DNA of 64,000 bases from Bacteroidales bacterium (GTDB lineage: Bacteria; Bacteroidota; Bacteroidia; Bacteroidales; GCA-2748055): positions 144,331-208,330 of the forward strand of contig JACJXF010000002.1 in the NCBI GenBank assembly GCA_020636775.1. The letters are read 5' to 3'. Numbering within the stretch: the stretch's first letter is position 1; every line of letters starts with the position of its first letter. The notes below the pieces were generated by a model. It was given only the letters and a program-made list of their open reading frames with translations, was not told where the DNA came from and did no database searches. Shown here piece by piece: positions 282-52,193 of this stretch. The translations under genes were made by a program, and so were the position numbers.

Positions 282-1505
282 TTAAACAAACATTTGTTGT
301 AACAGACCTTTCTTCCACTGCTCTGTTTTTTCAATCTGGGTGCTGCAATGGTTTATTTTATCATCGAGGGAGGAGAGGAAATTAGAGATTTTGGTTTGCT
401 CAGAGCCACTGGGAAGAGATATCGTCAACTTCATTAATTGAACCTTGGACATATTATACCTCGTACTACCCTGTGCTAATTTTATAATGTCATTCCTAAA
501 TCCTTCACTTCTAAATAAATAACGCGCAAAGAATGGACTGAGTATTTCAAAAGAATTAGGACGATATCCGAAACAAAAACTATTTAAATATAATTCATCC
601 ACATGGTCAAGAAGAACTGAAGCTGTGCCTATTTCATCTGGGGTTTCAGAAGAAACTGTAAAGAAAACATCCCCAAAACGGACTTGGTTGTGACTTTCAT
701 TTTCACCAATTTCGACATATTCAAATCTTGAGATATCTATTTTTGAATCGTCAAAGATTTGTTTGTACTGTATATAAGGTTTCCCCTGACCGAAATTTTC
801 TTTTGTTTTACCGGTTAGTCCATTATAGGTTTGCCCTACTTCTGCAAGCGTTTTCTTCTCCCACTCCGGAAACTCCTTCCCCTCATCATCCTTAAACCTG
901 ATTTCCTGCGAAAATATCTTCTGGATCACTCCTTTTTTGTATTGTTCCAGGAGGTTTTTCTTTTGTTTGAGCTGGGTGAGTTTGGTGTCGACGGAGGTGA
1001 GGAAAGAGGCAATTTTTTGTTGCTCGGGGAGGGAAGGTAATTTGATTGAGATCCTATAGAAATCACTATGATTTAAGTCGGGTATAGTGGATGTCCCTGC
1101 ATATTGCATTATAACTTTTTGAGTATTAGGCAATTTTAAAAAATAGAATAAAAACCATTTATGAATCTCCCCTGAATATTTAATTTTAAAGAAATTATTA
1201 TGAAAAGCACCATTGACACCAGTAACAATTTGACCAGTATTGCCTGTTCTTGTCATTAAAATATCATCTTCAACACATAATACTGAATCAGTGGGATTTT
1301 TAATGTAAAACTTCTTTAGAGAACCCGCTTTAATAAATTCATTCGTAATATAGAAATAACTGTTTTCAACAGGTTCAAGAAATCTTTCAGAAATTGGAAT
1401 TTGTAATCCTTGATTAATCTTTGTTATATCTCCCAATTTTTTCTCTGCAAAGTCGCTTGAAAACTCAGGAAATCGCAATACTGGAATATATTTTTGATTT
1501 ATCAT
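282..1505 (-). CDS. hsdS: Type I restriction-modification specificity subunit HsdS (two target-recognition domains)
   Basis: 407 aa. Two variable halves are each followed by a conserved coiled spacer (LPSLPEQQKIASFLTSVDTKLTQLKQKK... and LPSGSEQTKISNFLSSLDDKI...). The ATG lies 3 nt after the hsdM stop. Confidence 0.9.
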   Translation of the reverse strand: MINQKYIPVLRFPEFSSDFAEKKLGDITKINQGLQIPISERFLEPVENSYFYITNEFIKAGSLKKFYIKNPTDSVLCVEDDILMTRTGNTGQIVTGVNGAFHNNFFKIKYSGEIHKWFLFYFLKLPNTQKVIMQYAGTSTIPDLNHSDFYRISIKLPSLPEQQKIASFLTSVDTKLTQLKQKKNLLEQYKKGVIQKIFSQEIRFKDDEGKEFPEWEKKTLAEVGQTYNGLTGKTKENFGQGKPYIQYKQIFDDSKIDISRFEYVEIGENESHNQVRFGDVFFTVSSETPDEIGTASVLLDHVDELYLNSFCFGYRPNSFEILSPFFARYLFRSEGFRNDIIKLAQGSTRYNMSKVQLMKLTISLPSGSEQTKISNFLSSLDDKINHCSTQIEKTEQWKKGLLQQMFV

Positions 1506-1508
1506 AAC

Positions 1509-3080
1509 TTAAAAAGGAGATGATATATTAAGCTCATTACAATATCCTGCGATTAACTTATCTGATTCTTTCATTTGCTTATCGAGTTCTACCAGTTCTT
1601 TTGCCAACTGGTTAATATCAATATTATCCTCTGCTTCAAAAGTATCCACATACCTGGGAATATTAAGGTTGTAATCATTTACAATAACATCCACCAGCTT
1701 TATTCGTTTGCTGTATTTATCTTCCTCCGTACGATTACGGTACGCTTCCACAATCTTACTTATGTCTTCATCCCTCAGATGATTTTGGGTTTTTATTTTC
1801 TCAAAATGTTGGCTGGCATCAATAAACAAAATATCCTCAGGATTCTCACGACATTTTTTAAAAACGAGTATACATGCAGGAATGCTCGTACCATAAAAGA
1901 TGTTAGCCGGTAATCCGATAACCGCATCCAAATAATTCCGATCTTCAATAAGATATTTGCGTATATGCTGTTCTGCTCCCCCGCGAAACAAAGCTCCATG
2001 AGGAAGTACAATTGCCATGGTTCCATTTTCCGTGAGCTGGTAAATCATATGCTGCACGAATGCAAAATCTGCTTTGCTGGAAGGTGCGAGCTTACCGTAC
2101 TGGCTGAACCGGTCATCGCTCATAAAGAGTGGACTTGCACTCCATTGTGCGGAGAACGGAGGATTGGCTACAATAGCTTCAAACCTTTTATCAATATGTT
2201 GGGGATGTTCCAGTGTATCTTCCTGCTTTAGATCGAACCTCCGATAATGCACGCCATGCAAGATCATATTCATTCGTGCCAGGTTATATGTGGTACGGTT
2301 TAATTCCTGTCCGTAAAAGTTGCTTACATCCTGAACTTCCTTTGCAACTCGTAGCAAAAGAGATCCCGATCCGCATGTGGGATCATAAACCGTTTTGAGT
2401 TTGCTTTTCCCAGTGGTAACTAATTTCGCCAACACTTTACTTACAGCCTGGGGGGTATAGAATTCACCTGCTTTTTTACCAGCACCGCTGGCGAACTGCC
2501 CTATAAGGTATTCATAAGCATCACCCAATACATCCGCATCAGCATTTTCGAGCTGGAAGTCAATTTTATCCAAGTGGGAGAGAACCTTTGCAATGAGTTC
2601 GTTTTTGGCGGATTCGGTTCTTCCGAGTTTGGTACTGGTAAGGTCGAGGTCTTCGAAAAGGTTGTCGAAATCGTCCTCGCTGGCGGTTCCCATAGTACTT
2701 TGCTCTATACTGATGAGGATTTTGGCAAGGTCTTCAAGTATAAAATTGTTTTCGCCTTCCTTATCACTATTCCCTCGCTTGGCAACTTCACTGAACAGTT
2801 CAGCAGGGCGAAGGAAGTATCCCAGGGTGGCAAGGGACTCTTCTTTTATCGCTTCTATGTATTGCTTCCCTTTTGAAGTATCCTCCTTTATATCGCGGTA
2901 TTTGATCCCGTCCTGCTTCAGGATAGAATCGGCATACCGGTACATTTTCTCAGAGAGGTACTTATAAAAGACAAAACCCAGGATGTAATCGCGAAACTCA
3001 TCGGCATTCATTTTACCACGGAGGGTGTTGGCAATGTTCCAGAGCTGTTGTTCGAGTTGTTTTTTTTGGTCTTCGGACAT
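1509..3080 (-). CDS. hsdM: Type I restriction-modification N6-adenine DNA methyltransferase HsdM
   Basis: 523 aa. It has the SAM motif DPTCGSGSLL, the catalytic NPPF motif (IVANPPFSAQW) and an HsdM N-terminal domain (QLWNIANTLRG). Confidence 0.93.
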   Translation of the reverse strand: MSEDQKKQLEQQLWNIANTLRGKMNADEFRDYILGFVFYKYLSEKMYRYADSILKQDGIKYRDIKEDTSKGKQYIEAIKEESLATLGYFLRPAELFSEVAKRGNSDKEGENNFILEDLAKILISIEQSTMGTASEDDFDNLFEDLDLTSTKLGRTESAKNELIAKVLSHLDKIDFQLENADADVLGDAYEYLIGQFASGAGKKAGEFYTPQAVSKVLAKLVTTGKSKLKTVYDPTCGSGSLLLRVAKEVQDVSNFYGQELNRTTYNLARMNMILHGVHYRRFDLKQEDTLEHPQHIDKRFEAIVANPPFSAQWSASPLFMSDDRFSQYGKLAPSSKADFAFVQHMIYQLTENGTMAIVLPHGALFRGGAEQHIRKYLIEDRNYLDAVIGLPANIFYGTSIPACILVFKKCRENPEDILFIDASQHFEKIKTQNHLRDEDISKIVEAYRNRTEEDKYSKRIKLVDVIVNDYNLNIPRYVDTFEAEDNIDINQLAKELVELDKQMKESDKLIAGYCNELNISSPF

Positions 3081-3267
3081 TTAGGTATAAGTTAATTCAC
3101 TATATCATGGGAAGTTAATAATAATAGCTAACCTTGAATAATCAATTTTATTACAAACGAAATCTACCCAATCTGGATTTCTCTATATTTTAAAAGTAGT
3201 ATTTTTTTTACGATAACCCAATGAGGGTCTATAATATTGATCGAATATTAATTATCTATATCCACCC

Positions 3268-4506
3268 TCATTTGAAAAAAGAATGATCGGCTAATAATAG
3301 TGCGTTTTCCTGTTCGCTTACTTTTATGTACTGCATAAATGCTTTTTCATTAGTATGACCTGTGATACGCATTATTGCTATCGTATGTATATCCGACGAA
3401 AATGCATTAGTAGCAAAGGATCTTCTGGCAATATGGGAAGAAATAAGTTCATATTTATGAAGGCTGCGTTTATAACTTATTCCTTTTCTATTTTCTCTTA
3501 TAATTACAGTTTCCTCAATACCTGCAAGCTTTCCGATATGCTTCAGGGTACGATTCATTGCTTGGTTTGAGTCAGGTTTAGGGATATTTCCTTCATATTT
3601 TTCTAGAATTTCTATTATGGTTTGGTTTAGAGGAATTACCACCCTTGAACTGGTTTTAATAGTTCTAAGTGATATAAATTGATTTTCTTCAATAGTTTGA
3701 AAATTTGCTTTTTTAATCTGACTAAAATCTGAAAAGCGTAAACCGGTAAAACAACCAATCAGGAACAAATCGCGAACCTTTTCCATTCCTGGTTTAGCTG
3801 AAAGATCCAGCTCTCTGATTCGCTTTATCTCGTCCAACCGTAAATAAATTGCATCTGCCTCCTGAAATACTACTTTGAATTTTCTTTGTTTATAATCCAG
3901 ATTAGAATTTAATCCTCTGAATTTAGCTTCATTTAAAACAGCTTTTAAATTCTTAATATGCAATCCGATTGTGTTTTCACGCATACCATATACTTTTTGC
4001 ATATGGTCAATAAAAGCATAATAAAAATCCATATTAATATCTTCAAACCTGAGTTTTGGTTTGAAACTTTTTAGAGCACCAAGGGTTCTTAAATAGGTTT
4101 TGACAGTACCAGCCGTCTTCGTGGATCTCGATTCCTTTATGAATTGCTCAAAGAAATCATAAAGAGATTTAGGCTCCTTGACCAGAATTTCCTTAACCCT
4201 TCTCTTTCTATTAAGATAATTTTCCAGTTTATCCTTTACTTCTTTGGATTTTAGGTTAGGTTCTGCAACCATTTGTCTATTGACTAAAGAAAGGATTGCG
4301 GATTCGAGAGCTGCGATAGATTTGTTTAATTCTCCGGAAGCTGGAACACCTTTCTTTATACGTAAATCCTTTGTCCAGCAATGGGAATCCAATCGAATTC
4401 CAAAGGAATAGTCAATACGCCAGTTTTTCGAATTCCGGATTACAAGTACAAGCAGACGTTTATTAGAAGTTTTTCTGCCAAGGAGTCGTTTTGTTATAGT
4501 TGCCAT
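3268..4506 (-). CDS. Tyrosine site-specific integrase (Bacteroidota phage-integrase type)
   Basis: 412 aa. The C-terminal catalytic signature is HIARRSFAT (HxxR) and GHTNEKAFMQYI (nucleophile Tyr). It lies immediately downstream of the 3' end of tRNA-Cys. Confidence 0.88.
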   Translation of the reverse strand: MATITKRLLGRKTSNKRLLVLVIRNSKNWRIDYSFGIRLDSHCWTKDLRIKKGVPASGELNKSIAALESAILSLVNRQMVAEPNLKSKEVKDKLENYLNRKRRVKEILVKEPKSLYDFFEQFIKESRSTKTAGTVKTYLRTLGALKSFKPKLRFEDINMDFYYAFIDHMQKVYGMRENTIGLHIKNLKAVLNEAKFRGLNSNLDYKQRKFKVVFQEADAIYLRLDEIKRIRELDLSAKPGMEKVRDLFLIGCFTGLRFSDFSQIKKANFQTIEENQFISLRTIKTSSRVVIPLNQTIIEILEKYEGNIPKPDSNQAMNRTLKHIGKLAGIEETVIIRENRKGISYKRSLHKYELISSHIARRSFATNAFSSDIHTIAIMRITGHTNEKAFMQYIKVSEQENALLLADHSFFK

Positions 4507-4565
4507 TGATTTTGGTTTTAACCCAAATCGAACAACTGTATTAACCGTGTAAATGTGTTGTTACC

Positions 4566-4606
4566 AAAAAAAGAAACCCCTGTATGTTTTGCAATACAGG
4601 GGTTTC
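4566..4606 (-). terminator. Rho-independent terminator downstream of tRNA-Cys
   Basis: A perfect 13-bp stem, GAAACCCCTGTAT (4573-4585) / ATACAGGGGTTTC (4594-4606), with an 8-nt loop. It is followed on the minus strand by a 7-U run (A-run 4566-4572). Confidence 0.8.
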
Positions 4607-4609
4607 AGG

Positions 4610-4680
4610 AGGTCGGTAGCGGACTCGAACCGCTGTAACTGGTTTTGCAGACCAGGGCCTAACCACTCGGCTAACCGACC
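4610..4680 (-). tRNA. tRNA-Cys (anticodon GCA)
   Basis: The reverse complement folds as a cloverleaf: acceptor GGTCGGT/ACCGACC, 3-bp D stem GCC/GGC, anticodon stem CTGGT/ACCAG with loop CTGCAAA (GCA), T arm AGCGG-TTCGAGT-CCGCT. No CCA is encoded. Confidence 0.9.
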
Positions 4681-4928
4681 CAGACTATTGTTCTAAATAA
4701 CTCTTATCGAGTCTAGCAGCTCTCAATAAACTAACTTGCTTTTTGAATTCAAAACTTCAAAGCTGTGCAAAGATAAGAATTTTCTTTTTTAATTCGAAAG
4801 AAGTAATACGATCTGAAAATAAGGGTAAAATTTGAATATTATTTCATCTGCTTAATCAAAAAATGGCAGACCTTTTGAAATTGATTATACAATTTGTATA
4901 TTGCAAAATGTAAATTACAATTTGCGCA

Positions 4929-6065
4929 ATGAATATAAAACCACAAACACCATTTCCGGCAACCGGATATTTTGGCCCCGAGTACTTTTGTGATAGGGAG
5001 GAAGAGCTGGCTCAACTGATCAGAAATATAAAAGGTGGCAATTCAACAACATTGATCGCCCTTAGAAGACTTGGTAAAACCGCGCTGATTCAGCATCTGT
5101 TTTATACTCTGCAATCAAAATACCTGACGATTTACCTCGATATACTGGCAACCGAATCCTTAAGTGAACTGTTAAATCAGCTCTCTACTTCTATTGCGAA
5201 TCAATATTCAGAAAAGAGCCCTGTTGGAAAAAAGTTATGGCAAACCATCAGGTCATTTCGACCGGTAGTTAGTTATGATGCGCTTAACGGATCACCACTG
5301 ATAAGTATTAAATCCAGTCCGGAGGAAAGTAAAAAGAGCATTGCCGAAATATTTTCCGTTCTTGAGAAGCATTCGAAACGGGTAGTAATTGCCATTGACG
5401 AATTTCAACAAATACTTGAGTATCCTGAAAAAGCCACAGATGCCTGGTTGAGATCTCTTATCCAGCAATTAAAAAATGTCAGCTTTATTTTTTCTGGCAG
5501 TCAGCAGCATATAATGAAGGAAATTTTTGCTAATCCTTCCCGGCCTTTTTACAGAAGTTCCCAATTTATTAAAATCGGAAAACTAAAAGAGGAAAGATAC
5601 AGAAGCTTTATTATTTCGAAATTTAAGGAACATTCGAAATCCATTTCAGAAGAAACAGTATCCGAAATACTAAAATGGACTGATTTACATACCTATTATG
5701 TTCAGCTCTTATGCAACCGTGTATTTCTGGCTTCCAAAAAAGTGATAACTACTGAGATATGGAAAGAAGAAGCTGCCAAAATTTTAAAAGAGCAGGAATT
5801 TGTTTTTTATGGTTACAGGGAAATGCTTACGCGTCCGCAATGGGATTTTCTCAAAGCGGTGGCTGTTGAGGGAGCTGTTTATCAGCCAACATCATCAGAT
5901 TTTATTTCCCGTTATGGGCTCGGGAATTCCGCCACGGTTCAGCGTTCATTGATGTCCCTTCAGAGGATGGAGCTGATATATAAGGAGAATGACCAGGATG
6001 GCAGAAATTATTACGGGATTTATGACCTTCTTTTCTCACGATGGGTGAGACGATTTTTTGAATAA
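4929..6065 (+). CDS. AAA+ ATPase (archaeal-ATPase/DUF234-type ATP-binding protein)
   Basis: 378 aa. Walker A is LRRLGKTALI and Walker B is VVIAIDEFQ. The C-terminal region looks like a winged helix, as in ATPase+DUF234 proteins. Confidence 0.7.
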   Translation: MNIKPQTPFPATGYFGPEYFCDREEELAQLIRNIKGGNSTTLIALRRLGKTALIQHLFYTLQSKYLTIYLDILATESLSELLNQLSTSIANQYSEKSPVGKKLWQTIRSFRPVVSYDALNGSPLISIKSSPEESKKSIAEIFSVLEKHSKRVVIAIDEFQQILEYPEKATDAWLRSLIQQLKNVSFIFSGSQQHIMKEIFANPSRPFYRSSQFIKIGKLKEERYRSFIISKFKEHSKSISEETVSEILKWTDLHTYYVQLLCNRVFLASKKVITTEIWKEEAAKILKEQEFVFYGYREMLTRPQWDFLKAVAVEGAVYQPTSSDFISRYGLGNSATVQRSLMSLQRMELIYKENDQDGRNYYGIYDLLFSRWVRRFFE

Positions 6066-7733: not shown

Positions 7734-8405
7734 TCACTCAGGTAATCTGCCAATAAATCGATCCTTCTCTTCGGGACTTAGATTCTTAAATTCTTCCATA
7801 TAATGAAGTTCTTCTGTGGTTTTATGTTTATTAAGATTTACAAAGACAATCTTACCCTGTCCCTTTCCAAATTCTCCCCTGAAATCATAAAAACCTGCCA
7901 GTATGGTTAGTTTACCGGCCTTCACCAGTTCCCGGTACTTTTTATAGGCAATGCTCACCTGGTAGTCGAGATTTTTCTCAATAACATGTGAATGCAGACT
8001 ATCAAAATCGTCAGTTTCTCCAAACTCATGTATTATGGGCCTCAGAAAATCCAACTCATGTTTAATTCCCTCGCTCTCCTCATCAAATCCCTTTAAATAG
8101 GCCTTAATTGCTCCACAATCGGAGTGCCCCAGAAACATTAAAACCGGTGTCTTCAGATGGTAAATCCCATAATCAACCGAGCCCTCAGTTGATAATATCT
8201 GGTTTCCGATATTCTGAATGGAGAAAATTTTATTGGAAGTATCAGGCATCAGCGCCCGGAGCGGTACTCTCGAATCGGAACAGGTCACCAGGGTAATAAA
8301 AGGTTCCTGCTTCAGCTTAAAGCTTTCGAAGAACGCACGGTCGTGTGTGGAGGTAAACAAGGTGTTTCCTTCAACAATTCGGGAGATTATTTCGGGAACG
8401 GTCAT
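7734..8405 (-). CDS. Beta-class carbonic anhydrase
   Basis: It has the zinc-ligand motifs CSDSRVP and GHSDCGA. The ORF in the track runs to 8519, but the internal start MTVPEIISRIVEGN (ATG 8405) gives a typical ~223 aa beta-CA. Confidence 0.8.
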   Translation of the reverse strand: MTVPEIISRIVEGNTLFTSTHDRAFFESFKLKQEPFITLVTCSDSRVPLRALMPDTSNKIFSIQNIGNQILSTEGSVDYGIYHLKTPVLMFLGHSDCGAIKAYLKGFDEESEGIKHELDFLRPIIHEFGETDDFDSLHSHVIEKNLDYQVSIAYKKYRELVKAGKLTILAGFYDFRGEFGKGQGKIVFVNLNKHKTTEELHYMEEFKNLSPEEKDRFIGRLPE

Positions 8406-8738
8406 GGGGAGGAGGTTTATTTTACTCTTCAGTCGGTAAATATACTCAGATAAAGTTATGGAATTCTGCGGAATGTGAATATATGGTTCCGGAAAACCCC
8501 CCAGACAGCCTGTGCTCATCCCTCGTCTTCAGAAGAACGCCAGATCACTTTTATTCGGTTTTTTTTACTAAATTCCGTTTTCAAATAACAATAACAGGAT
8601 TAATCGACTTTTTTGAGTGTTATTATGTAATATTTCCAAACATATATTGTGAAATTTGAATGTTTTGGCTAATAGATAAAATGAGATAGGAGAGGTGTGT
8701 GTGGATGATATCAGGCATATAAAATAGTTACCAACCAT

Positions 8739-9665
8739 ATGATGAGAGCAATTAGTTACATATTAGCAATATTTTTATTGAGTTCTTGTGCTTCGATAAT
8801 GAATCAGCCAACAACAAAAATTAAAATATACTCAGATAATTCTACTGAAATAGTTGTCGGTAATAACACTTATAAAATTGAACATGAAGAAAAGGTTCAT
8901 GTTAAAAGACAGAAAGATTCTCTGATATTAATTGCAAAACAAGATTCCTTGACTAAAACGTTTATTTTGAAACCCAAAAATTCTTTTAATTATTATGCAA
9001 ATGTACTTTCATATGGACTTGGATTTATTTGGGATTCAAAATCGGAGAAACGATACACTTATCAAGGAAACTTATACATTGATTTTAGTTCACAAAACTT
9101 GAGGAAATTTAAACCAAATAAAAAAGGACAAATAGATATTCAATTTTCACTTCCTCATATTAATTCTCTCTACTTACGACCTCTAAATGAATCTTCAAAA
9201 GCAAATATTGGATTTTGGGGCATAACAGGTGGACTTGAATATTATTATAAAGACAACAAATCATTAGGATTATCAATTAGTGCAGTCTCTGACTTTTTTG
9301 TTCCATTTCCAGCAGCAGTTGACATTAGTGGTGAATATGAATTAATGAGTTCAACGTATATAAGCCTGACAGATAATTTGAAAATAAGGGACTTTAGCAT
9401 TGGTTATGGGATAAATTATTCAAAAAATAATTGGGACTTAAGATATTATGATGCGTTTGACCCTGCACCTCCATCAAGAGAACCTGTTTTTAAATCATCA
9501 CAATCATTTGGCTTGACATTAAATAGTTATTATAGATTAGGAAAGCATTTCAATATCGGCGTAATTTATAGACCGACTTTTTTAAGAGTCAAACCAAGTA
9601 CTGAGTTTGTATATGAACATTTGATAAGTGTTGACTTTGCTTGGAAATGGAAAATAAAGAAATGA
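8739..9665 (+). CDS. Hypothetical lipoprotein (cassette 1)
   Basis: 308 aa with a lipoprotein signal (ILAIFLLSSC) and an aromatic-rich, beta-strand-like composition. The ATG lies 2 nt after the GTTACCAACC core. Confidence 0.6.
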   Translation: MMRAISYILAIFLLSSCASIMNQPTTKIKIYSDNSTEIVVGNNTYKIEHEEKVHVKRQKDSLILIAKQDSLTKTFILKPKNSFNYYANVLSYGLGFIWDSKSEKRYTYQGNLYIDFSSQNLRKFKPNKKGQIDIQFSLPHINSLYLRPLNESSKANIGFWGITGGLEYYYKDNKSLGLSISAVSDFFVPFPAAVDISGEYELMSSTYISLTDNLKIRDFSIGYGINYSKNNWDLRYYDAFDPAPPSREPVFKSSQSFGLTLNSYYRLGKHFNIGVIYRPTFLRVKPSTEFVYEHLISVDFAWKWKIKK

Positions 9666-9674
9666 ATTAAATAC

Positions 9675-9807
9675 GGTTGGTAACAATGTATATACAAAAT
9701 AGGCGTAATAGTAGTAATTTCAAGGGCTGTAACCCGCTCAAAAATTCTAACGGTTTGATAAGTTTGAAGCCCGCAATCGCCTACTTTGCATATACTAACC
9801 GTTGTAT
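9675..9807 (+). repeat. attC-like recombination site 1
   Basis: It starts GGTTGGTAAC and ends AACC-GTTGTAT. L-box-like arms GTATATACAAAATAGGCG (9688-9705) and CGCCTACTTTGCATATAC (9778-9795) pair with 2 mismatches. It is about 87% identical to site 2 over the same length, by my hand alignment. Confidence 0.75.
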
Positions 9808-9873
9808 TCAAGTGTGTAGACATTCCTGCAATTAATTTTATATCCAAATCACATAAAATATCAATTTAGTGTT

Positions 9874-9881
9874 TATATTTG
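9874..9881 (+). promoter_or_regulatory. Candidate Bacteroidota -7 promoter box (TATATTTG) for cassette 2
   Basis: An exact TAnnTTTG match 28 nt upstream of ATG 9910. I saw no clean -33 TTTG at the expected spacing. Confidence 0.35.
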
Positions 9882-9909
9882 TAAAATATTTACATAAATA
9901 GATGATAAA

Positions 9910-11169
9910 ATGGTATTAGAGATTCGCCTTAGTAATTTTTTTTCAATAAAAGATGAAGTTGTATTAGACTTCAGGGCAGCCAATATAAAATCAGCAAATG
10001 CAAAAGCATTAAAGAATAATTTATTTGAACAAGATAAAACAGGTATATTAAAAACACTGATTATATATGGAGCCAACGCTTCTGGGAAAAGTAATATAAT
10101 AAAAGCTATACGTTTTTGTAATGCAATGGTTTTTGAGTCACATAATCATAATGAAAATACTATTTATAATTTTATTCCTTTTAAGTTTGAAAACTACAAC
10201 AATAAACCAAGTACATACTTTATACGATTTGTTTTAGGTGAAATTGAGTATGAATATTCTTTCTCATTGACACGTACTTCAATAATTACTGAAAGTTTAT
10301 ATTATTATCCAAAAGGTCGGATTAAGGAGATATTTACACGTGATGAGCGAAAAGGAAAAAGTAAGAAAGAAAAATACACATTTACGGATGTGATTAAAAG
10401 ACCATTTGATGTTGCTGAAAATACATCTGATAAAACATTATACATTTCCCGAGCAAGTCAAATGGATAGAGACTTAGCAAAAGAAATTTTTAATTATTTC
10501 AACAAAACTTTTATTTTAAATTATTTAGGTTTTGGAATTTCTGCGATAGAAAACATCACAAATCTTAATAAACAACAATTAATAGATGCTTTAAAAATAG
10601 CGGATAGCGATATTGAAGAAGTAAAAATTAAAGTGCTGAAAAAATCGGGTAAAAATATTCATGCCGATTTGACAAGTATGACTTTAAAAGTGGAAGATGT
10701 TGTGCAAGACCATTTGCAGATTAAAACATATCATAAAACAAATCCGGGTGTAGCTTTTGATTTTCTCACAGAGGAGTCACAGGGAACTATAAAACTTTTT
10801 TTTATAATGCTTACTCTTTTAGATGTTATCAAGAATAACAAAGTATTACTAATTGATGAAATTGAAGAAAGTCTTCACCCTAAGATTATTGAATATATTT
10901 TTAATCTGTTTAGAGCTGGAGAAAAAGCTCAACTACTTTGCACAACACATAACACACAATTTCTTGACCTTAAAAAATTTCGTAAAGACCAGATTTGTTT
11001 TGTCAATAAAAGTATGACTGGTGCTACTGACTTATATTCTCTTTATGATTATAGTGACTTCCGAGATACTATGGATTTGGAGAAAGCATATATGCAAGGA
11101 CGTTTCGATGCAATTCCAATAGTTAATGATTCTTTTGACGAGCTAAAAAGTTTATTGCATGAAAAGTAA
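9910..11169 (+). CDS. AAA_15/AAA_21-type ABC-like ATPase (OLD/AriA/AbiLi/RloA-like), cassette 2
   Basis: 419 aa. Walker A is GANASGKSN, Walker B is VLLIDEIEESLHP, and the H-loop is CTTHN. The N-terminus (LSNFFSIKDEVVLDF) is typical of this defence-ATPase family. Confidence 0.8.
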   Translation: MVLEIRLSNFFSIKDEVVLDFRAANIKSANAKALKNNLFEQDKTGILKTLIIYGANASGKSNIIKAIRFCNAMVFESHNHNENTIYNFIPFKFENYNNKPSTYFIRFVLGEIEYEYSFSLTRTSIITESLYYYPKGRIKEIFTRDERKGKSKKEKYTFTDVIKRPFDVAENTSDKTLYISRASQMDRDLAKEIFNYFNKTFILNYLGFGISAIENITNLNKQQLIDALKIADSDIEEVKIKVLKKSGKNIHADLTSMTLKVEDVVQDHLQIKTYHKTNPGVAFDFLTEESQGTIKLFFIMLTLLDVIKNNKVLLIDEIEESLHPKIIEYIFNLFRAGEKAQLLCTTHNTQFLDLKKFRKDQICFVNKSMTGATDLYSLYDYSDFRDTMDLEKAYMQGRFDAIPIVNDSFDELKSLLHEK

Positions 11170-11722
11170 ACGACAGGCATCAAAAGGAAAAAAAATTAAT
11201 CCGCATTTTTGGGTTTTCTGTGAAGGAGAAACAGAAGAAGCATATGTCAGGTTTTTACGCTCTGAATATAGGTTGCCAGTAGAAATAATACCCAAAGTTA
11301 CTGGTTCTAGTATAAATGAACGTTTTATTAATTCATATAAAAAAGGAAAACCTATTCACGAGAAAGATAAAGATTTTCTAATATATGATGCGGATGTTCC
11401 AGAGGTTCTTGAGAAACTTAAAAAAATTAATAAAGCTATTCTTTTGGTTTCTAACCCTACAATTGAGCTGTGGTTTTTGCTTCATTATAAAAATCAGACA
11501 GCGGCATTGTCAGGAGATGATTGTGTTAGAGAATTGAGTAATCGAAATAGAAACAATTACATGAAGGGAATAATTGATAATCCTTTAAAAGTAAAATTAA
11601 AGGAAAAGTGTAGTGATGCATGTAACCGTTCTAAACAACTTGAATTATTAGAAAATCCTTCGACTAATTTGTATGTTTTCATTGAATCACTTGAAGAAGT
11701 AAAAAAAGAAAAAATGCAATAA
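11159..11722 (+). CDS. RloB-like (TOPRIM-related) protein, partner of the ATPase, cassette 2
   Basis: 187 aa. It has FWVFCEGETEEAYV (a conserved Glu) and LIYDADVP (DxD-like). It overlaps the ATPase gene by 11 nt. Confidence 0.7.
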   Translation: MKSKRQASKGKKINPHFWVFCEGETEEAYVRFLRSEYRLPVEIIPKVTGSSINERFINSYKKGKPIHEKDKDFLIYDADVPEVLEKLKKINKAILLVSNPTIELWFLLHYKNQTAALSGDDCVRELSNRNRNNYMKGIIDNPLKVKLKEKCSDACNRSKQLELLENPSTNLYVFIESLEEVKKEKMQ

Positions 11723-11726
11723 ACAC

Positions 11727-11860
11727 CTGTATACAACAATGTATATACAAAATAGGCGTGATATTAGTAAATTCAACGGTTGTAGCCCGCTTCAACTTCT
11801 CAACGGTTTGATAATTTTGAAGCCCGCAATCGCCTACTTTGCATATACCAAACGTTAGCG
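11727..11860 (+). repeat. attC-like recombination site 2
   Basis: It starts CTGTATACAAC and ends AAAC-GTTAGCG. Its inverted arms are the same as in site 1. It begins 5 nt after the RloB-like stop. Confidence 0.75.
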
Positions 11861-11897
11861 GTCATATAACTTCACATCTCAATTTAACTATTAATTT

Positions 11898-11928
11898 TTT
11901 GCATAGAATTAATTAAGTGCTAACTTTG
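11898..11928 (+). promoter_or_regulatory. Bacteroidota sigma-A type promoter for the mazEF cassette
   Basis: The -33 TTTG (11898-11901), a 19-nt spacer and the -7 TAACTTTG (11921-11928) match the TTTG-N19-21-TAnnTTTG consensus exactly. The ATG is at 11948. Confidence 0.6.
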
Positions 11929-11947
11929 TAATTACAAAACAAAGATT

Positions 11948-12193
11948 ATGGAACTCTCAATTGTTCAAATAGGAAATTCAAAAGGTATAAGGTTAAGTAA
12001 AACCATCCTTGAGAAATATGATATCAAAGATACTGTCGAAGTTATCCTTGAAAAAGGCTTTATTGTGTTAAAGCCAAAACCCTCTCCCAGGAAAGGCTGG
12101 GATAAAGCCTTTAAAAAGATGCACGAAAAAGGTGATGACAATCTTTTAATGAACGATGTTTTTGAAGACGAAAATCTTGAAGAATGGAGCTAA
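11948..12193 (+). CDS. mazE: AbrB/MazE/SpoVT-family antitoxin (cassette 3)
   Basis: 81 aa. The N-terminus IVQIGNSKGIRLSKTILEKY is a swapped-hairpin AbrB-type fold motif. It overlaps the toxin gene by 10 nt. Confidence 0.8.
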   Translation: MELSIVQIGNSKGIRLSKTILEKYDIKDTVEVILEKGFIVLKPKPSPRKGWDKAFKKMHEKGDDNLLMNDVFEDENLEEWS

Positions 12194-12507
12194 ATCAATA
12201 TTCCGTTGTATTAGTTAATCTTGATCCTACGTTAGGAAGTGAGATTAAAAAGACAAGACCTTGCGTTATAATCTCTCCGGACGAAATGAACCATTATTTA
12301 AGAACGATAGTTATTGCTCCAATGACAAGTAAATCAAAAGATTATCCAACAAGAGTTAAGATTAAACAGAATAATAAGGAGGGCTGGATTGTACTTGACC
12401 AGATTCGCACCATAGATAAGCAAAGAATAATAAAAGTTTTTGAGAATTTGAATAAGAAAGAAATTGAAAAAGTAAAGCTTGTTATTAAAGAAACTTTTGT
12501 CGATTAA
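12184..12507 (+). CDS. mazF: PemK/MazF-family endoribonuclease toxin (cassette 3)
   Basis: 107 aa. The sequence VVLVNLDPTLGSEIKKTRPCVIISPD...IVIAPMTS...LDQIRTIDKQR is the classic MazF/PemK pattern. Confidence 0.85.
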   Translation: MELNQYSVVLVNLDPTLGSEIKKTRPCVIISPDEMNHYLRTIVIAPMTSKSKDYPTRVKIKQNNKEGWIVLDQIRTIDKQRIIKVFENLNKKEIEKVKLVIKETFVD

Positions 12508-12512
12508 AAATA

Positions 12513-12643
12513 CGCCACTAACAGCGTGTAAATGTCATTGCCACTTTTCTCTTCCCTACTGGCTTTAATTCAAAATTATTACATAACTTTATTTAAAGAT
12601 GTTCGTCTATGTGGCAACGCCACTTACACGCGGAACGTTGCAA
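12513..12643 (+). repeat. attC-like recombination site 3 (sequence family differs from sites 1/2)
   Basis: It starts CGCCACTAAC and ends GGAAC-GTTGCAA. Arms CGTGTAAATGTCATTGCCAC (12525-12544) and GTGGCAACGCCACTTACACG (12611-12630) form an imperfect inverted repeat (GTGGCAA and TTACACG blocks perfect). It starts 6 nt after the mazF stop. Confidence 0.7.
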
Positions 12644-12890
12644 GCAATTTTGACCCGTCCTAATAATGACCTTACATTATAATTAAAAATCATTATGTGC
12701 CTGATACACGCAAAATTGAAAAATTCCAGCCCCTGAAAGACACTTAAACTATTAGCCCAAAGCGCTTATTTTAAGGGCGTTACACATAATAAACTTTGCA
12801 AAGGCCTGTCGGGAAACCGCTTCAAAATGCCCGAAGTTTCAATCCCTAAACGTCCCCCGTTCCTCTCGCCTCACCCCTCGCAACTCCTTT

Positions 12891-13847
12891 TCACCCAATC
12901 CCATTCCATACCATCAGCCAAAACGGAATCGCAAACAAACACACAATATAGCTCACGAAAATAATGCCACCTACTTTCCCGATATCACCTCCATAGGTTC
13001 TTACCATCAGGATGTGTGCGGTGGCGGGTGCGGTGGCCGACTGGAGAATTAATACCTGGGCGAGCAGCGGATAGCTCTGACCGGTTTTTAAAAAGTATAA
13101 GGCAGCTACAGTAGCAGCAGGAAGAATGATGAATTTCACAAAAACAATACGAAAGGTATCCCAGAAAGGAGGAATCTTTCGCATCGACATGGCCAGGGTG
13201 GAGCCCAGGACAAAGGTGGCGACAGGCACCGTGGCATTCCCCAGCATGCGACTTGCATCCACTAAAATTTCGGGAACAAAGCGCTTTCCTCCCGTGAGAA
13301 CAAGAAGAATACCCAGCAAACTGGCGATAAACGGAGGAGTCACTATTTTCTTAAACAGACTGCCGTTTTTACCATCCTTTGTTATCAGAATTTTTCCAAC
13401 CGACCACATAATTGGATTCAGTCCCATGAGCACTAGAAAGCAAATCAGTGAAAACTCAGGAAACTGATCCTTAAAAGCAAATTCGCCAATGGGCAGGGCC
13501 AGGTAAACAGCATTCTGCATTCCGGACAGGGGAAAGAGAGATTTCTTTTCTTTAATGTTCCTGGCAAATAAAAGACCGGAGAAAATAAGTCCCCCAAATG
13601 CCAGCGCCATGGCTACCAGAGGGGCGTACCACCAATACGTCTGTGCAGCGGGATCAAAACTCTTCATGATGGTGGCAAAAATCTGAAGAGGAAGAAAAAC
13701 CCTGACGACCAGGACCGACAATCCATCAATAAACTCCTCAGTAAACACCTTTTTATAACTCATATATCCGGCCAGGGATGCAATAAGAAACACTTTGAAT
13801 ATTGCCTGGAAGATGCTGAAAAAGGTCCCTGTGAAGAAGCTTTCCAT
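12891..13847 (-). CDS. AEC-family (auxin efflux carrier-type) membrane transporter
   Basis: A polytopic membrane protein. I place the start at MESFFTGTFFSIF (ATG 13847). The longer track ORF (to 13994) only adds a His/Val/Leu low-complexity translation of the 9-bp repeat array. Confidence 0.75.
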   Translation of the reverse strand: MESFFTGTFFSIFQAIFKVFLIASLAGYMSYKKVFTEEFIDGLSVLVVRVFLPLQIFATIMKSFDPAAQTYWWYAPLVAMALAFGGLIFSGLLFARNIKEKKSLFPLSGMQNAVYLALPIGEFAFKDQFPEFSLICFLVLMGLNPIMWSVGKILITKDGKNGSLFKKIVTPPFIASLLGILLVLTGGKRFVPEILVDASRMLGNATVPVATFVLGSTLAMSMRKIPPFWDTFRIVFVKFIILPAATVAALYFLKTGQSYPLLAQVLILQSATAPATAHILMVRTYGGDIGKVGGIIFVSYIVCLFAIPFWLMVWNGIG

Positions 13848-13903
13848 GATAGGATTGTGGGTGTTGTTGAAGGGAGCAAAAGTAGGGAAATTTTTTGGAA
13901 CAT

Positions 13904-14112
13904 GGTGGGCGTGAAGGGCGTGAAGGACGTGAAGGACGTGAAGGGCGTAAAGGACGTAACGACCGTAACAACTGTGATGGACGTGATGGACCAACCGTAA
14001 CGACCGTAACGACCGTTACGTCCGTAACGACTGTGATGGTAACAACCGTAACGACCGTAACGACCGTAACGTCCGTTACGTCCGTGATGGTAACGACCCC
14101 AACTACCGTGAC
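13904..14112. repeat. About 23 tandem units of a 9-bp repeat (GTGAAGGRC / CGTAACGAC / GTGATGG variants)
   Basis: Read directly: ggtgggcgt gaagggcgt gaaggacgt gaaggacgt gaagggcgt aaaggacgt aacgaccgt ... gtaacgacc gtaacgacc gtaacgtcc gttacgtcc. It lies between the divergent AEC transporter and ccsBA genes. Confidence 0.9.
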
Positions 14113-21025: not shown

Positions 21026-21547
21026 ATGAAAAAACAAGCTTTTATTTTCCTCGCCATCCTGTCGTTTACATCGGTTTCGCTATTCGCACAGACCCTGCAG
21101 GAGCAGGCAAAGGCTCTTCCCAGACCTGCCGATTGCGGGGTGGCTGATTATGATGCCTTTAAAAACTCTTCTTTCACTTTGAAGGACGATGTTGTAAAAA
21201 CAGATAAGAACTATGAAGAAGTAACCACAGATATTGCCAAATATTCAACTTCTGAAAAGCCGGTTACGGTTGCGAATGTAAAATCAGATATTTCCCGTGT
21301 GAAGTCTGTGAAATCCTCCCTTCAGACCTTCGATGACAAAGTTGTAAAACTTACCGACGATGGGAAGTCGCTAACGGAGAATGTTACCAAGGTAAAACCC
21401 GTAACCAAAATCAAGCCGGCTACCTCGAATACCAAAGATTCCGTAAAGGCTGTGGATCTGAGCCGGGATATGTTAAAGGAACTAGGAACCAAGGTGGATG
21501 CGGATCTGGAGACGCTGAATGGGCTGCTTTCGAAGGCGGAAGAGTAG
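21026..21547 (+). CDS. Secreted hypothetical protein
   Basis: 173 aa with a signal peptide (MKKQAFIFLAILSFTSVSLFAQ) and a Lys/Val/Thr-rich, probably helical body. Confidence 0.5.
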   Translation: MKKQAFIFLAILSFTSVSLFAQTLQEQAKALPRPADCGVADYDAFKNSSFTLKDDVVKTDKNYEEVTTDIAKYSTSEKPVTVANVKSDISRVKSVKSSLQTFDDKVVKLTDDGKSLTENVTKVKPVTKIKPATSNTKDSVKAVDLSRDMLKELGTKVDADLETLNGLLSKAEE

Positions 21548-21552
21548 ATTTA

Positions 21553-21693
21553 GGGTAACGAAGTAACGAGGTAACGGGGTAACGGGGTAAGGAGGTAACG
21601 AGGTAACGGGGTAACGAAGTTACGGGGTAACGGAGTAACAGGGTTAAGGGGTTATGGAGTTACGGGTGAAAAGGAAGTAAGGGGTGTAACGAA
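21553..21693. repeat. About 16-17 tandem units of the 8-bp repeat RRGTAACG (G-rich on the + strand)
   Basis: Read directly: gggtaacg aagtaacg aggtaacg gggtaacg gggtaagg aggtaacg aggtaacg gggtaacg aagttacg gggtaacg ..., degenerating toward the 3' end. Confidence 0.9.
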
Positions 21694-50804: not shown

Positions 50805-52193
50805 ATGAACTTATTGAAATACTGCCTGCTAACTTTATGCTATCAAAGGATTATGAATTTATTCCCTTCAGTTATATTATTTTTTACTACCATGGGATGC
50901 ATTCCCTCGGGCAACTCAGGTCAAAACACTCCTTCTTTTCCGGGAGCTGAAGGCGCCGGTATGTATACAAGCGGAGGGAGAGGCGGAATAGTAGTTGAAG
51001 TAAGCAATCTGGAAGATAGCGGTGCAGGAAGTCTCAGGGCTGCATTAAATATGAAGGAATGCCGGACAGTTATATTTAAAATTTCCGGAACTATTGAACT
51101 TAAATCCCCTGTTGAAATAAAAAACGGAAACCTTACAATTGCAGGACAAACGGCACCCGGCGATGGCATTTGTGTCAGCCGCTATCCTGTCATAATCAAA
51201 AGCGGGAATGTTATAATCCGCTATATGCGTTTCAGGCTCGGAGATACCTCGGGTGAAGGATTCGATGCCATTAACTGTAAAGATCAGGAAGATGTGATCA
51301 TCGATCATTGCAGCATGAGCTGGTCGGTTGATGAGACGGCATCTTTTTACGACAATAAAAATTTTACGCTGCAGTGGTGCATTATAAGCGAAAGTCTTAA
51401 TAATTCAGTTCATAAAAAAGGTGAACATGGATATGGGGGTATATGGGGAGGGATGAATGCAAGCTTTCATCATAACCTTCTGGCTAATCATGCCAGCAGA
51501 AACCCGCGATTTCAGGGTAGTCGCTACCATAAAATGCCGGATAAGGAAATGGCTGAATTTACAAACAATGTAATCTATAACTGGGGACATAAAAGCTCCT
51601 ATGGAGGCGAAGAAGGACATTACAATATGATCGCCAATTATTATAAACCCGGACCGGCAACTAAAAAGTCACAACGAACAGTTATACTGGAGCCGTTTTC
51701 ACCCTTGGGAAGTTTTTATCTGGAGGGGAATATATTAGAAGGATCACTGGAAATAAGTCAAAACAACAGCCTTGGAATTGAGATTAATGAAAACGCTCTT
51801 GATTCGGTTCTTTCAAAAGTAAGATTTATCATTACTCCGGCTGTAAAAGCACAGACTGCCTCAGAAGCATTTTCTTCTGTAACAGCATTGGCCGGAGCCA
51901 GTCTGAAACGTGATATAACAGACCAGCGGATTATTGATGAAGTCATAAATGGAAGCTGCCATTTTGGAGATAACGGAATAATTAACAGCCAGCAGGATGT
52001 GGGTGGCTGGCCCCAGCTTGAAACAATGGAAGCCCCTGCCGATTCCGATCACGATGGAATGCCCGATTTATGGGAGAAAAACATGAATCTGGATCCTACA
52101 GATCCCACTGACGGGAAATTATATCAGCCTGATAATATTTACACAAACCTCGAATTATATCTGAACAGTTTAACACTGCATGAAAAAAGCTAA
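50805..52193 (+). CDS. Pectate lyase (PL1)
   Basis: 462 aa. It has FPGAEGAGMYTSGGRGG, VIIDHCSMSW and SRNPRFQGSR (PL1 vWiDH and RxPxxR motifs) and a C-terminal Ca-binding DSDHDGMPDLWE. Confidence 0.85.
   Translation: MNLLKYCLLTLCYQRIMNLFPSVILFFTTMGCIPSGNSGQNTPSFPGAEGAGMYTSGGRGGIVVEVSNLEDSGAGSLRAALNMKECRTVIFKISGTIELKSPVEIKNGNLTIAGQTAPGDGICVSRYPVIIKSGNVIIRYMRFRLGDTSGEGFDAINCKDQEDVIIDHCSMSWSVDETASFYDNKNFTLQWCIISESLNNSVHKKGEHGYGGIWGGMNASFHHNLLANHASRNPRFQGSRYHKMPDKEMAEFTNNVIYNWGHKSSYGGEEGHYNMIANYYKPGPATKKSQRTVILEPFSPLGSFYLEGNILEGSLEISQNNSLGIEINENALDSVLSKVRFIITPAVKAQTASEAFSSVTALAGASLKRDITDQRIIDEVINGSCHFGDNGIINSQQDVGGWPQLETMEAPADSDHDGMPDLWEKNMNLDPTDPTDGKLYQPDNIYTNLELYLNSLTLHEKS

Follow-up and report, generated by a model that had tools for sequence, protein, structure and literature searches.

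A putative AbiL-type anti-phage gene pair packaged as an attC-bounded cassette in a Bacteroidales genome

The subject of this analysis is a pair of overlapping genes, abiLi and abiLii, that lies in a 64,000-nucleotide (nt) stretch of DNA from a Bacteroidales metagenome-assembled genome (MAG; GenBank contig JACJXF010000002.1, positions 144,331 to 208,330), the whole of which is called the window below. The pair, which encodes an ABC-type ATPase and a small RloB-family protein, is packaged as one attC-bounded cassette in a cluster of three cassettes without a nearby integrase. In every respect by which PADLOC and DefenseFinder recognise AbiL, and which could be tested on the sequence, the pair is an ordinary AbiL member, of which phage resistance would be the expected phenotype. 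We consider it likely that the two genes form an AbiL-family anti-phage module, in which an AbiLi ATPase would be coupled to AbiLii, a minimal RloB/TOPRIM-like metal-dependent nuclease, and which would be carried on the cassette together with an internal promoter. An earlier interpretation that was made from the DNA letters alone (the sequence-only reading) had proposed a cassette-borne system of this kind here.

The gene pair and its family

The two genes and the motifs of their products are as follows; coordinates are positions in the window.

9910-11169, + strand: abiLi, an ABC-type (AAA_21, Rad50/SMC-like) ATPase of 419 amino acids (aa), by Pfam AAA_21 and PADLOC AbiLi
10069-10095, + strand: Walker A of abiLi, GANASGKSN (aa 54-62, including K60)
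10777-10788, + strand: signature-like SQGT of abiLi
10846-10881, + strand: Walker B/D-loop of abiLi, LLIDEIEESLHP (aa 313-324)
10942-10953, + strand: H-loop of abiLi, TTHN (aa 345-348)
11159-11722, + strand: abiLii, an RloB-family TOPRIM-like putative nuclease of 187 aa, by Pfam RloB and PADLOC AbiLii
11216-11239, + strand: glutamate motif of abiLii, FCEGETEE (aa 20-27)
11378-11401, + strand: DxD motif of abiLii, LIYDADVP (aa 74-81)
11453-11476, + strand: NPTIELWF of abiLii (including E103)

The abiLi product keeps the conserved ATPase motifs. It matched Pfam AAA_21 with an E-value of 1.1e-40 over residues 51-353 (a model of 304 positions), and its top PADLOC model, the best of 70, was AbiLi (1.3e-80, 269 bits, residues 1-412); the next PADLOC match was AriA at 7e-37, followed by other AAA_15/21 defence ATPases. 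The abiLii product matched the whole of the Pfam RloB model (2.2e-21, 77.4 bits) and in PADLOC the sole model that it matched was AbiLii (9.6e-20). It is clear that all four profiles were matched far beyond chance; no specific NCBIfam model was found for either product. Both genes are adjacent and co-oriented, so that an AbiLi-type ATPase, an AbiLii (RloB) partner and the gene arrangement of AbiL are all present.

These results bear directly on the sequence-only reading. It had recognised the ATPase plus TOPRIM-type partner of AbiL and RloA-RloB, with which the best PADLOC models of both proteins agree, and the motifs that it quoted for the ATPase (GANASGKSN, LLIDEIEESLHP and TTHN) and for the RloB-like protein (FCEGETEE and LIYDADVP) are all present at the places that it gave. 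Its overlap of 11 nt between the two genes (ATGAAAAGTAA) is borne out by the coordinates of the open reading frames (ORFs). It would have been refuted by profile searches that placed the second protein outside the RloB/TOPRIM clan, and the outcome was instead in its favour, an RloB match of 77 bits against a cut-off of 31.5. Two of its points are to be amended; the exact subfamily, which it held could not be assigned, is assignable from the AbiLi and AbiLii matches given above, and the pair, which it thought may be divergent, is not notably so. A search found 805 relatives, the best 120 of which are at least 62% identical and several of which are already named RloB family protein; the exact protein is itself already public, from a Bacteroidales MAG, as an “RloB domain-containing protein”. 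Among 1.8 billion cluster representatives that were searched, 2,498 were members of the family at E ≤ 1e-3.

Plasmid-borne relatives are distant, with at most 34% identity for the ATPase and 30% for the RloB protein among the matches listed (the best 15 of 176 records for the ATPase and all 8 for the RloB protein), and the adjacency of the two genes is retained in them, for example in Clostridium beijerinckii. As in the AbiL of Lactococcus lactis, the gene of an ABC/Rad50-like ATPase and, behind it, that of a small RloB/TOPRIM-like protein make up a two-gene operon, but here the host is a Bacteroidales MAG rather than a Lactococcus plasmid and the pair lies within an attC-bounded cassette; no Lactococcus plasmid was among the plasmid matches just described. 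AbiL has been classed with the ABC ATPase plus TOPRIM defence systems (PMC11464382, PMC13064643). The AbiL class so defined, RloB-named homologues and the presence of defence systems in integron cassettes are all already known.

PARIS (AriA/AriB) is a further relative, in that it also combines an ABC ATPase sensor with a TOPRIM-type effector and its AriA model matches the ATPase. However, the ATPase scores much better on AbiLi than on AriA, and the effector here has no AriB/DUF4435 match and is roughly half as large as AriB (35 kDa). Membership of PARIS was rejected because the 187-aa protein matches no AriB model in PADLOC at E ≤ 1. AbiLii has also been reported, in a review, to superpose poorly on AriB (PMC13064643).

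The small protein as a putative TOPRIM-type nuclease

Profile comparison shows the small protein to be a member of the RloB family, and the RloB model was likewise matched by all 57 diverse relatives that were scanned. Five residues (G23, E26, D79, P100 and E103) do not vary in these relatives, which go down to 31% identity, and three more (E22, D77 and H109) hardly vary. An AlphaFold2 model of the protein was built from a diverse alignment (pLDDT 94.9, pTM 0.88) and its predicted core has the order beta-alpha-beta-alpha-beta-alpha-beta. In the model E22 and E26 lie just after strand 1 (17-21), D77 is the last residue of strand 3 (71-77) with D79 just beyond it, and E103 follows the strand at 94-99. 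A glutamate after strand 1, a DxD after strand 3 and a four-stranded alpha/beta core make up the TOPRIM pattern, which has also been given for RloB (PMC12065111), and all three were found in the abiLii product. That the small protein is a putative TOPRIM-type nuclease is well supported by its motifs, its modelled topology and the literature, short of statistical proof of the fold.

ABC ATPase and TOPRIM chemistry are also combined in the OLD family and in Gabija GajA; there a single polypeptide contains both the ATPase and the nuclease, which here are separate proteins. The OLD TOPRIM structures 6nk8, 6njv, 6njw and 6njx were among the weak Foldseek matches to a first, low-confidence model of the small protein, and a few RloB family members gave weak matches to OLD-like_TOPRIM; no significant fold or profile match was obtained by Foldseek or hhalign. 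Foldseek returned mostly generic Rossmann-like or receiver alpha/beta folds, with OLD TOPRIM, retron Eco2 (Ec67) and topoisomerases among them, and the hhalign comparison with P2 Old aligned only the EGxTE motif (FCEGETEE with LVEGKTET). Sub-threshold matches of RloB family members were scattered over DUF4276, Toprim and OLD-like_TOPRIM.

Two attC-like sites bound the cassette

The cassette and the sites at its two ends are placed as follows.

9802-11854, + strand: AbiL cassette of 2,053 nt, comprising a 5' leader with a promoter-like motif, abiLi, abiLii and its own attC-like site
9678-9807, + strand: attC-like site a, the 3' end of the preceding cassette, with R'' TGGTAAC at 9678-9684 and R' GTTGTAT at 9801-9807
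11731-11860, + strand: attC-like site b, the AbiL cassette's own, with R'' ATACAAC at 11731-11737 and R' GTTAGCG at 11854-11860

The direct repeats that bound the pair are spaced by 2,053 nt and are 80% identical, and the window has exactly two occurrences of a 32-mer taken from them, where 0 would be expected. Each is a 130-nt imperfect palindrome of the form nnnnAAC-AAT-GTATATACAAAATAGGCG ... CGCCTACTTTGCATATAC-TnAAC-GTTnnnn, which by alignment and consensus has the R''/L''...L'/R' layout of the attC sites of integrons. The crossover G|TT of site a, at 9801/9802, is the start of the AbiL cassette, and the R'' of site b begins 8 nt after the abiLii stop. Refined from this crossover in GTTGTAT to the G of GTTAGCG, the limits show the 9801-11860 and “about 2.05 kb” of the sequence-only reading to have been essentially right. 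The arms of the palindrome have two mismatches, A.C when the top strand folds and G.T when the bottom strand does; because of this asymmetry folding is biased towards the bottom strand, as is seen in the z-scores of site a (bottom -2.6, top -1.0) and of site b (bottom -3.9 at -22.3 kcal/mol, top -3.5). An Rfam scan of 8000-14000 gave no match at E ≤ 1, so that the flanking repeats are not a described RNA family.

Complementarity between the R'' of an integron cassette and the start of that cassette marks a circular intermediate, and this signature is present here. In the AbiL cassette the R'' ATACAAC is the exact reverse complement of the GTTGTAT at which the cassette starts. In the first cassette of the cluster the R'' TGGTAAC pairs exactly with GTTACCA (8727-8733), and in the third, which holds a MazE/MazF pair, R'' and R' match at 6 of 7 positions. 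The three cassettes (a lipoprotein-like ORF, AbiL and MazEF) occupy 8728-12643, with a beta-carbonic anhydrase gene on one side and an AEC-type transporter gene on the other, and the G+C content is 28-31% across 8500-12500, as compared with 37-47% in the flanks. No intrinsic terminator was found between abiLii and the next cassette.

The description of the pair as a single mobile cassette is supported by the attC-type flanks, by the R''/R' complementarity and by the breakpoints of homology described in the next section, which fall at the cassette ends. The IntI with its specific additional domain that belongs to an integron was not found in the 64-kb window, and the locus is therefore a cluster of attC sites without an integrase and not a complete integron. 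Integron cassettes carrying defence systems, some with promoters of their own, have been described (the BRiCs of mobile integrons and the chromosomal integrons of Vibrio), and the present cassette is like them in holding a compact defence system within a single attC-bounded unit. It differs from them in the missing integrase, in an attC that belongs to a sequence-conserved family and in its host phylum, since integrons are reported to be nearly absent from complete Bacteroidetes genomes (IntegronFinder 2 paper). AbiL was not found by a text search of the BRiC and Vibrio integron-cassette papers.

The pair in other genomes

Homologous loci were examined in 10-12-kb contexts (L003-L008 and L129-L131) and in contigs of about 2 kb (L134-L136). 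In every one of them the two genes are adjacent and overlap by 8-26 nt. Both proteins are 87-95% identical to those of the window in two unrelated genomic contexts (L003/L004 and L006), and three more contexts (L129, L130 and L131) have an RloB-family partner of 65-80% identity. The stretch of nucleotide homology starts exactly at the GTT crossover (9801) in L006 and L131; in all six homologues compared, from five other genomic contexts, it ends at 11713-11741, at or just before R''. The short contigs with an identical pair break inside the repeats, as would be expected of a recombination site that is repeated. L003 and L004 are otherwise identical contigs, and L003 has in addition a group II intron (2961-4621, with an RVT_1 plus GIIM ORF; L004 at about 4640), which is inserted exactly at the 5' boundary of the AbiL unit (GTTA|CATGC).

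These loci also bear upon a possible connection with restriction. The Pfam family RloB (PF13707) takes its name from restriction-linked ORFs in the type I restriction-modification loci of Campylobacter, and the window's pair is like the RloA/RloB of C. jejuni in its full-length RloB match and its AAA_21-type ATPase partner. Since hsdS (282-1505) and hsdM (1509-3080) are found at the left end of the window, 6.8 kb upstream of the pair, the latter might be an RloA/RloB-type accessory that cooperates with them. We regard this as highly improbable; the pair stands outside the hsd operon, with six unrelated genes in between (among them an integrase, a STAND-type ATPase, a regulator and a carbonic anhydrase), and there are no hsd genes beside it in any of the loci listed above, so that dependence on restriction-modification is unlikely. 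The restriction-linked RloA/RloB placement was rejected for the same two reasons, the pair not being embedded among hsd genes and the linkage not being conserved.

A leader with a conserved promoter-like motif

Two features of the leader, at the 5' end of the cassette, are considered here.

9874-9881, + strand: candidate Bacteroidetes-type -7 box, TATATTTG, which ends 28 nt before the ATG
9857-9917, + strand: conserved inverted repeat over the -7 box and the start codon, with the core TTTGTAAA-ATA-TTTACA at 9878-9894

The -7 promoter consensus of Bacteroides is TAnnTTTG. This motif, at an unchanged distance from the ATG, is present in 9 of 9 homologous loci (those listed being L004, L006, L129, L130, L131, L134, L135 and L136), including ones at only about 70% nucleotide identity, and it is from this conservation across homologues that the box draws all its weight. 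A scan for sigma-70 promoters found no enrichment and was uninformative, as expected for Bacteroidota. The sequence-only reading had given the cassette its own promoter; the box is indeed there and is kept, and it is probably a promoter inside the cassette, a role to which its conservation points.

The box is held within a palindrome, TTTGyAAA-N3-TTTACAAA, that is also conserved in all nine homologous loci. The larger inverted repeat has 29-nt arms that are 72% complementary in the window, 79% in L004 and 78% in L006. It may be an operator, through which the genes would be autoregulated, or alternatively an element of the 5' leader. Taken together, this conservation supports a functional leader carried within the cassette.

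The 130-nt site as a family

The site is widespread. At least 120 DNA stretches contain an 18-mer from it; nearly every one comes from a separate species representative, and cultured isolates are among them. The hosts among the matches listed are mostly Bacteroidota (Bacteroidales, Marinilabiliales, Flavobacteriales, Cytophagales and Saprospiraceae), the others being Ignavibacteria, Kapabacteria and Calditrichia; integrons of Chlorobi and Ignavibacteria are already known. All 89 distinct copies are about 131 nt long, with a mean column identity of 85%, a value biased by the seed, as every copy was retrieved through the exact 18-mer. Against the profile of these copies, site a scored E = 6e-39 and site b E = 5e-40. 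Run on this 89-copy alignment, RNAalifold gave for the top strand only a trivial helix of 4 bp, because of the A.C mismatches on that strand. Among the loci listed, 44 of 120 have at least two matches in the profile search, but in 10 of these 44 the additional matches are only weaker palindrome echoes on the opposite strand; true arrays, of 2-5 copies in the same orientation and 0.7-4.4 kb apart, are thus present in about 34 of the 120. For neighbouring pairs across these other arrays R'' and R' match perfectly in 7 of 12 cases, where 0.94 would be expected, and none of 2,000 shuffles reached 7. A literature search found no description of such a 130-nt attC-like family.

Similarity to IntI1 was seen in nine of the 120 listed loci (L009-L128). 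The IntI-related tyrosine recombinases near the repeats are as follows, with coordinates in the respective locus.

L013, 4264-5169: IntI-related tyrosine recombinase
L110, 6795-7682 and 5-499: IntI-related tyrosine recombinases
L056, 760-1650: IntI-related tyrosine recombinase
L087, 623-1389: IntI-related tyrosine recombinase

The full-length recombinases of L056, L013 and L110 score 162-219 bits on TIGR02249, for which the cut-off is 265, and score closer to integron integrases than to XerC/XerD. In an alignment with IntI1 they are without about 41 residues at the position of the IntI1-specific insertion. The recombinases near the repeats match NF040815 and TIGR02249 above XerC/XerD and have the motifs LPxVLS and NPLDKL. 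In L013 and L110 a full copy of the repeat lies about 40-130 nt from a divergently oriented recombinase gene, where an attI would be expected.

It could be argued that the 130-nt repeats are some other dispersed palindrome, such as an element like a miniature inverted-repeat transposable element (MITE) or a regulatory or terminator sequence, and that the pair is a fixed chromosomal islet. The window has no IntI-type integrase, the recombinases found beside the repeats elsewhere lack the IntI-specific insertion and fall below the integron-integrase cut-off, the sequence of the repeat varies unusually little for an attC, and the left end of the first cassette is without a hairpin, all of which would fit. 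This explanation is nonetheless distinctly improbable, as it would leave aside the AAC and GTT boxes at their canonical positions, the variable R'' bases that match the start of their own cassette far above chance, the arrays in one orientation with their spacing of 0.7-4.4 kb, the co-oriented ORFs with an attC site at the 3' end and the bottom-strand folding bias that comes from the A.C-to-G.T asymmetry. Moreover, a third site, at 12516-12643, is unrelated in sequence and yet has the same architecture and a 6/7 R''/R' match.

The AbiL cassette might be one of the units carried by an integron-like system, as yet little described, that extends across the phylum Bacteroidota and to related bacteria of the FCB group, a suggestion that we put forward tentatively and hold to be possible rather than probable. 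The putative system would be defined by the 130-nt site, conserved in sequence and length in at least 120 species representatives, by G.T wobbles in the stem of that site where canonical attC sites have bulged extrahelical bases and by IntI-related recombinases without the additional domain. Such a system, if real, would be missed by the standard definitions of integrons and would hold a large untapped reservoir of cassettes for defence and other functions; a conserved attC family with unusual recombinases would, if confirmed, widen where cassette-based gene capture is sought.

A proposed mechanism for the pair

The defence mechanism of the pair is most likely, by analogy, that of the better-known ABC ATPase plus TOPRIM systems. 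The two genes would be transcribed from the promoter inside the cassette and would be translationally coupled through their 11-nt overlap. An oligomer of the ATPase would hold or control the nuclease and sense a phage cue, as in PARIS, OLD and Gabija, and ATP-dependent activation or release would then let AbiLii cut nucleic acid; the target could be tRNA or another RNA, as for AriB, or alternatively DNA, as for OLD. Growth of the phage would be stopped by abortive infection, at the expense of the cell, and in the form of a cassette the system could move as a whole with its promoter, through site-specific recombination at G|TT.

The pair could instead be an addiction module of the toxin-antitoxin kind, with AbiLii as toxin and AbiLi as antitoxin, that stabilises the cassette cluster and is not dedicated to anti-phage defence. 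PARIS has been described as a pair like those of type II toxin-antitoxin systems, in which the ATPase neutralises a TOPRIM toxin (PMC13064643), the adjoining cassette does hold a MazE/MazF pair, and the conserved palindrome over the promoter would suit autoregulation in the manner of such systems. In other genomes, however, the pair is found by itself amid housekeeping genes, where there is no array to be stabilised, and behaviour of this kind and defence are not mutually exclusive in the ABC ATPase plus TOPRIM family; a stabilising role is compatible with the defence model. As a replacement for that model we judge it unlikely.

Several observations weigh against the proposed AbiL defence module and its carriage as a cassette with an internal promoter. 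No IntI-like ORF was found by tblastn in the 64-kb window, and the 130-nt attC family was absent from the other genomic contexts of homologous pairs examined; the window is therefore the only example among those examined with an intact cassette. With regard to the nuclease, Foldseek against the Protein Data Bank (PDB), with the low-confidence and then the high-confidence model of the small protein, gave no match below E = 0.02, hhalign of the RloB profile against P2 Old gave a probability of 0.3%, and a PDB sequence search with both proteins found no solved relative. The mode of action of the Lactococcus AbiL prototype is itself still unknown (PMC13064643). The -7 box is short and AT-rich, and its consensus TAnnTTTG is no commoner in the window than expected (58 occurrences against 66).

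As an AbiL/RloAB-type pair, the AbiL module proposed here is one more in a family of thousands. Its 2-kb unit, with a promoter-like leader and a minimal putative nuclease of 187 aa, would make a compact test case for how ABC ATPase plus TOPRIM systems sense phage. Furthermore, it draws attention to attC-bounded cassettes as carriers of defence systems in Bacteroidales, within a phylum in which integrons are reported to be nearly absent.

Neighbouring features of the window

The other features near the pair are as follows.

11948-12193: MazE-like antitoxin, in cassette 3 (11855-12643)
12184-12507: PemK/MazF toxin, in cassette 3
12516-12643: attC-like palindrome with AAC...GTT architecture, sequence-unrelated to the 130-nt family
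3268-4506: tyrosine integrase of the Bacteroidetes type, a different type from the integron integrase
4929-6065: ATPase_2/STAND-like NTPase

The profile of the attC family matched neither the left end of cassette 1 nor the third site at 12516-12643, and these are therefore not of the 130-nt sequence family. Cassette 1 (8727-9801) encodes a protein of 308 aa that has no match in Pfam and whose signal (…LLSSCAS) is of the lipoprotein type. There is no hairpin in the 140 nt upstream of it, so that its left end looks attI-like, or like a secondary site, rather than like an attC.

A stretch resembling a defence island, at 282-6065, lies 4-9 kb upstream of the pair and includes the hsdS and hsdM genes described above; hsdR is not in the window. 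Two tandem arrays were also noted, one at 21521-21680 with about 20 copies of an 8-nt unit (GGGTAACG-like) and one at 13933-14102 with a 9-nt unit (CGTAACGAC-like), the latter overlapping the implausible His/Val-rich N-terminus of a minus-strand ORF at 12891-13994. Finally, the segments at 51292-51610 and 60652-60970, which are 9,360 nt apart and have 73-74% identity over 226 nt and 47 nt, are probably paralogous genes.

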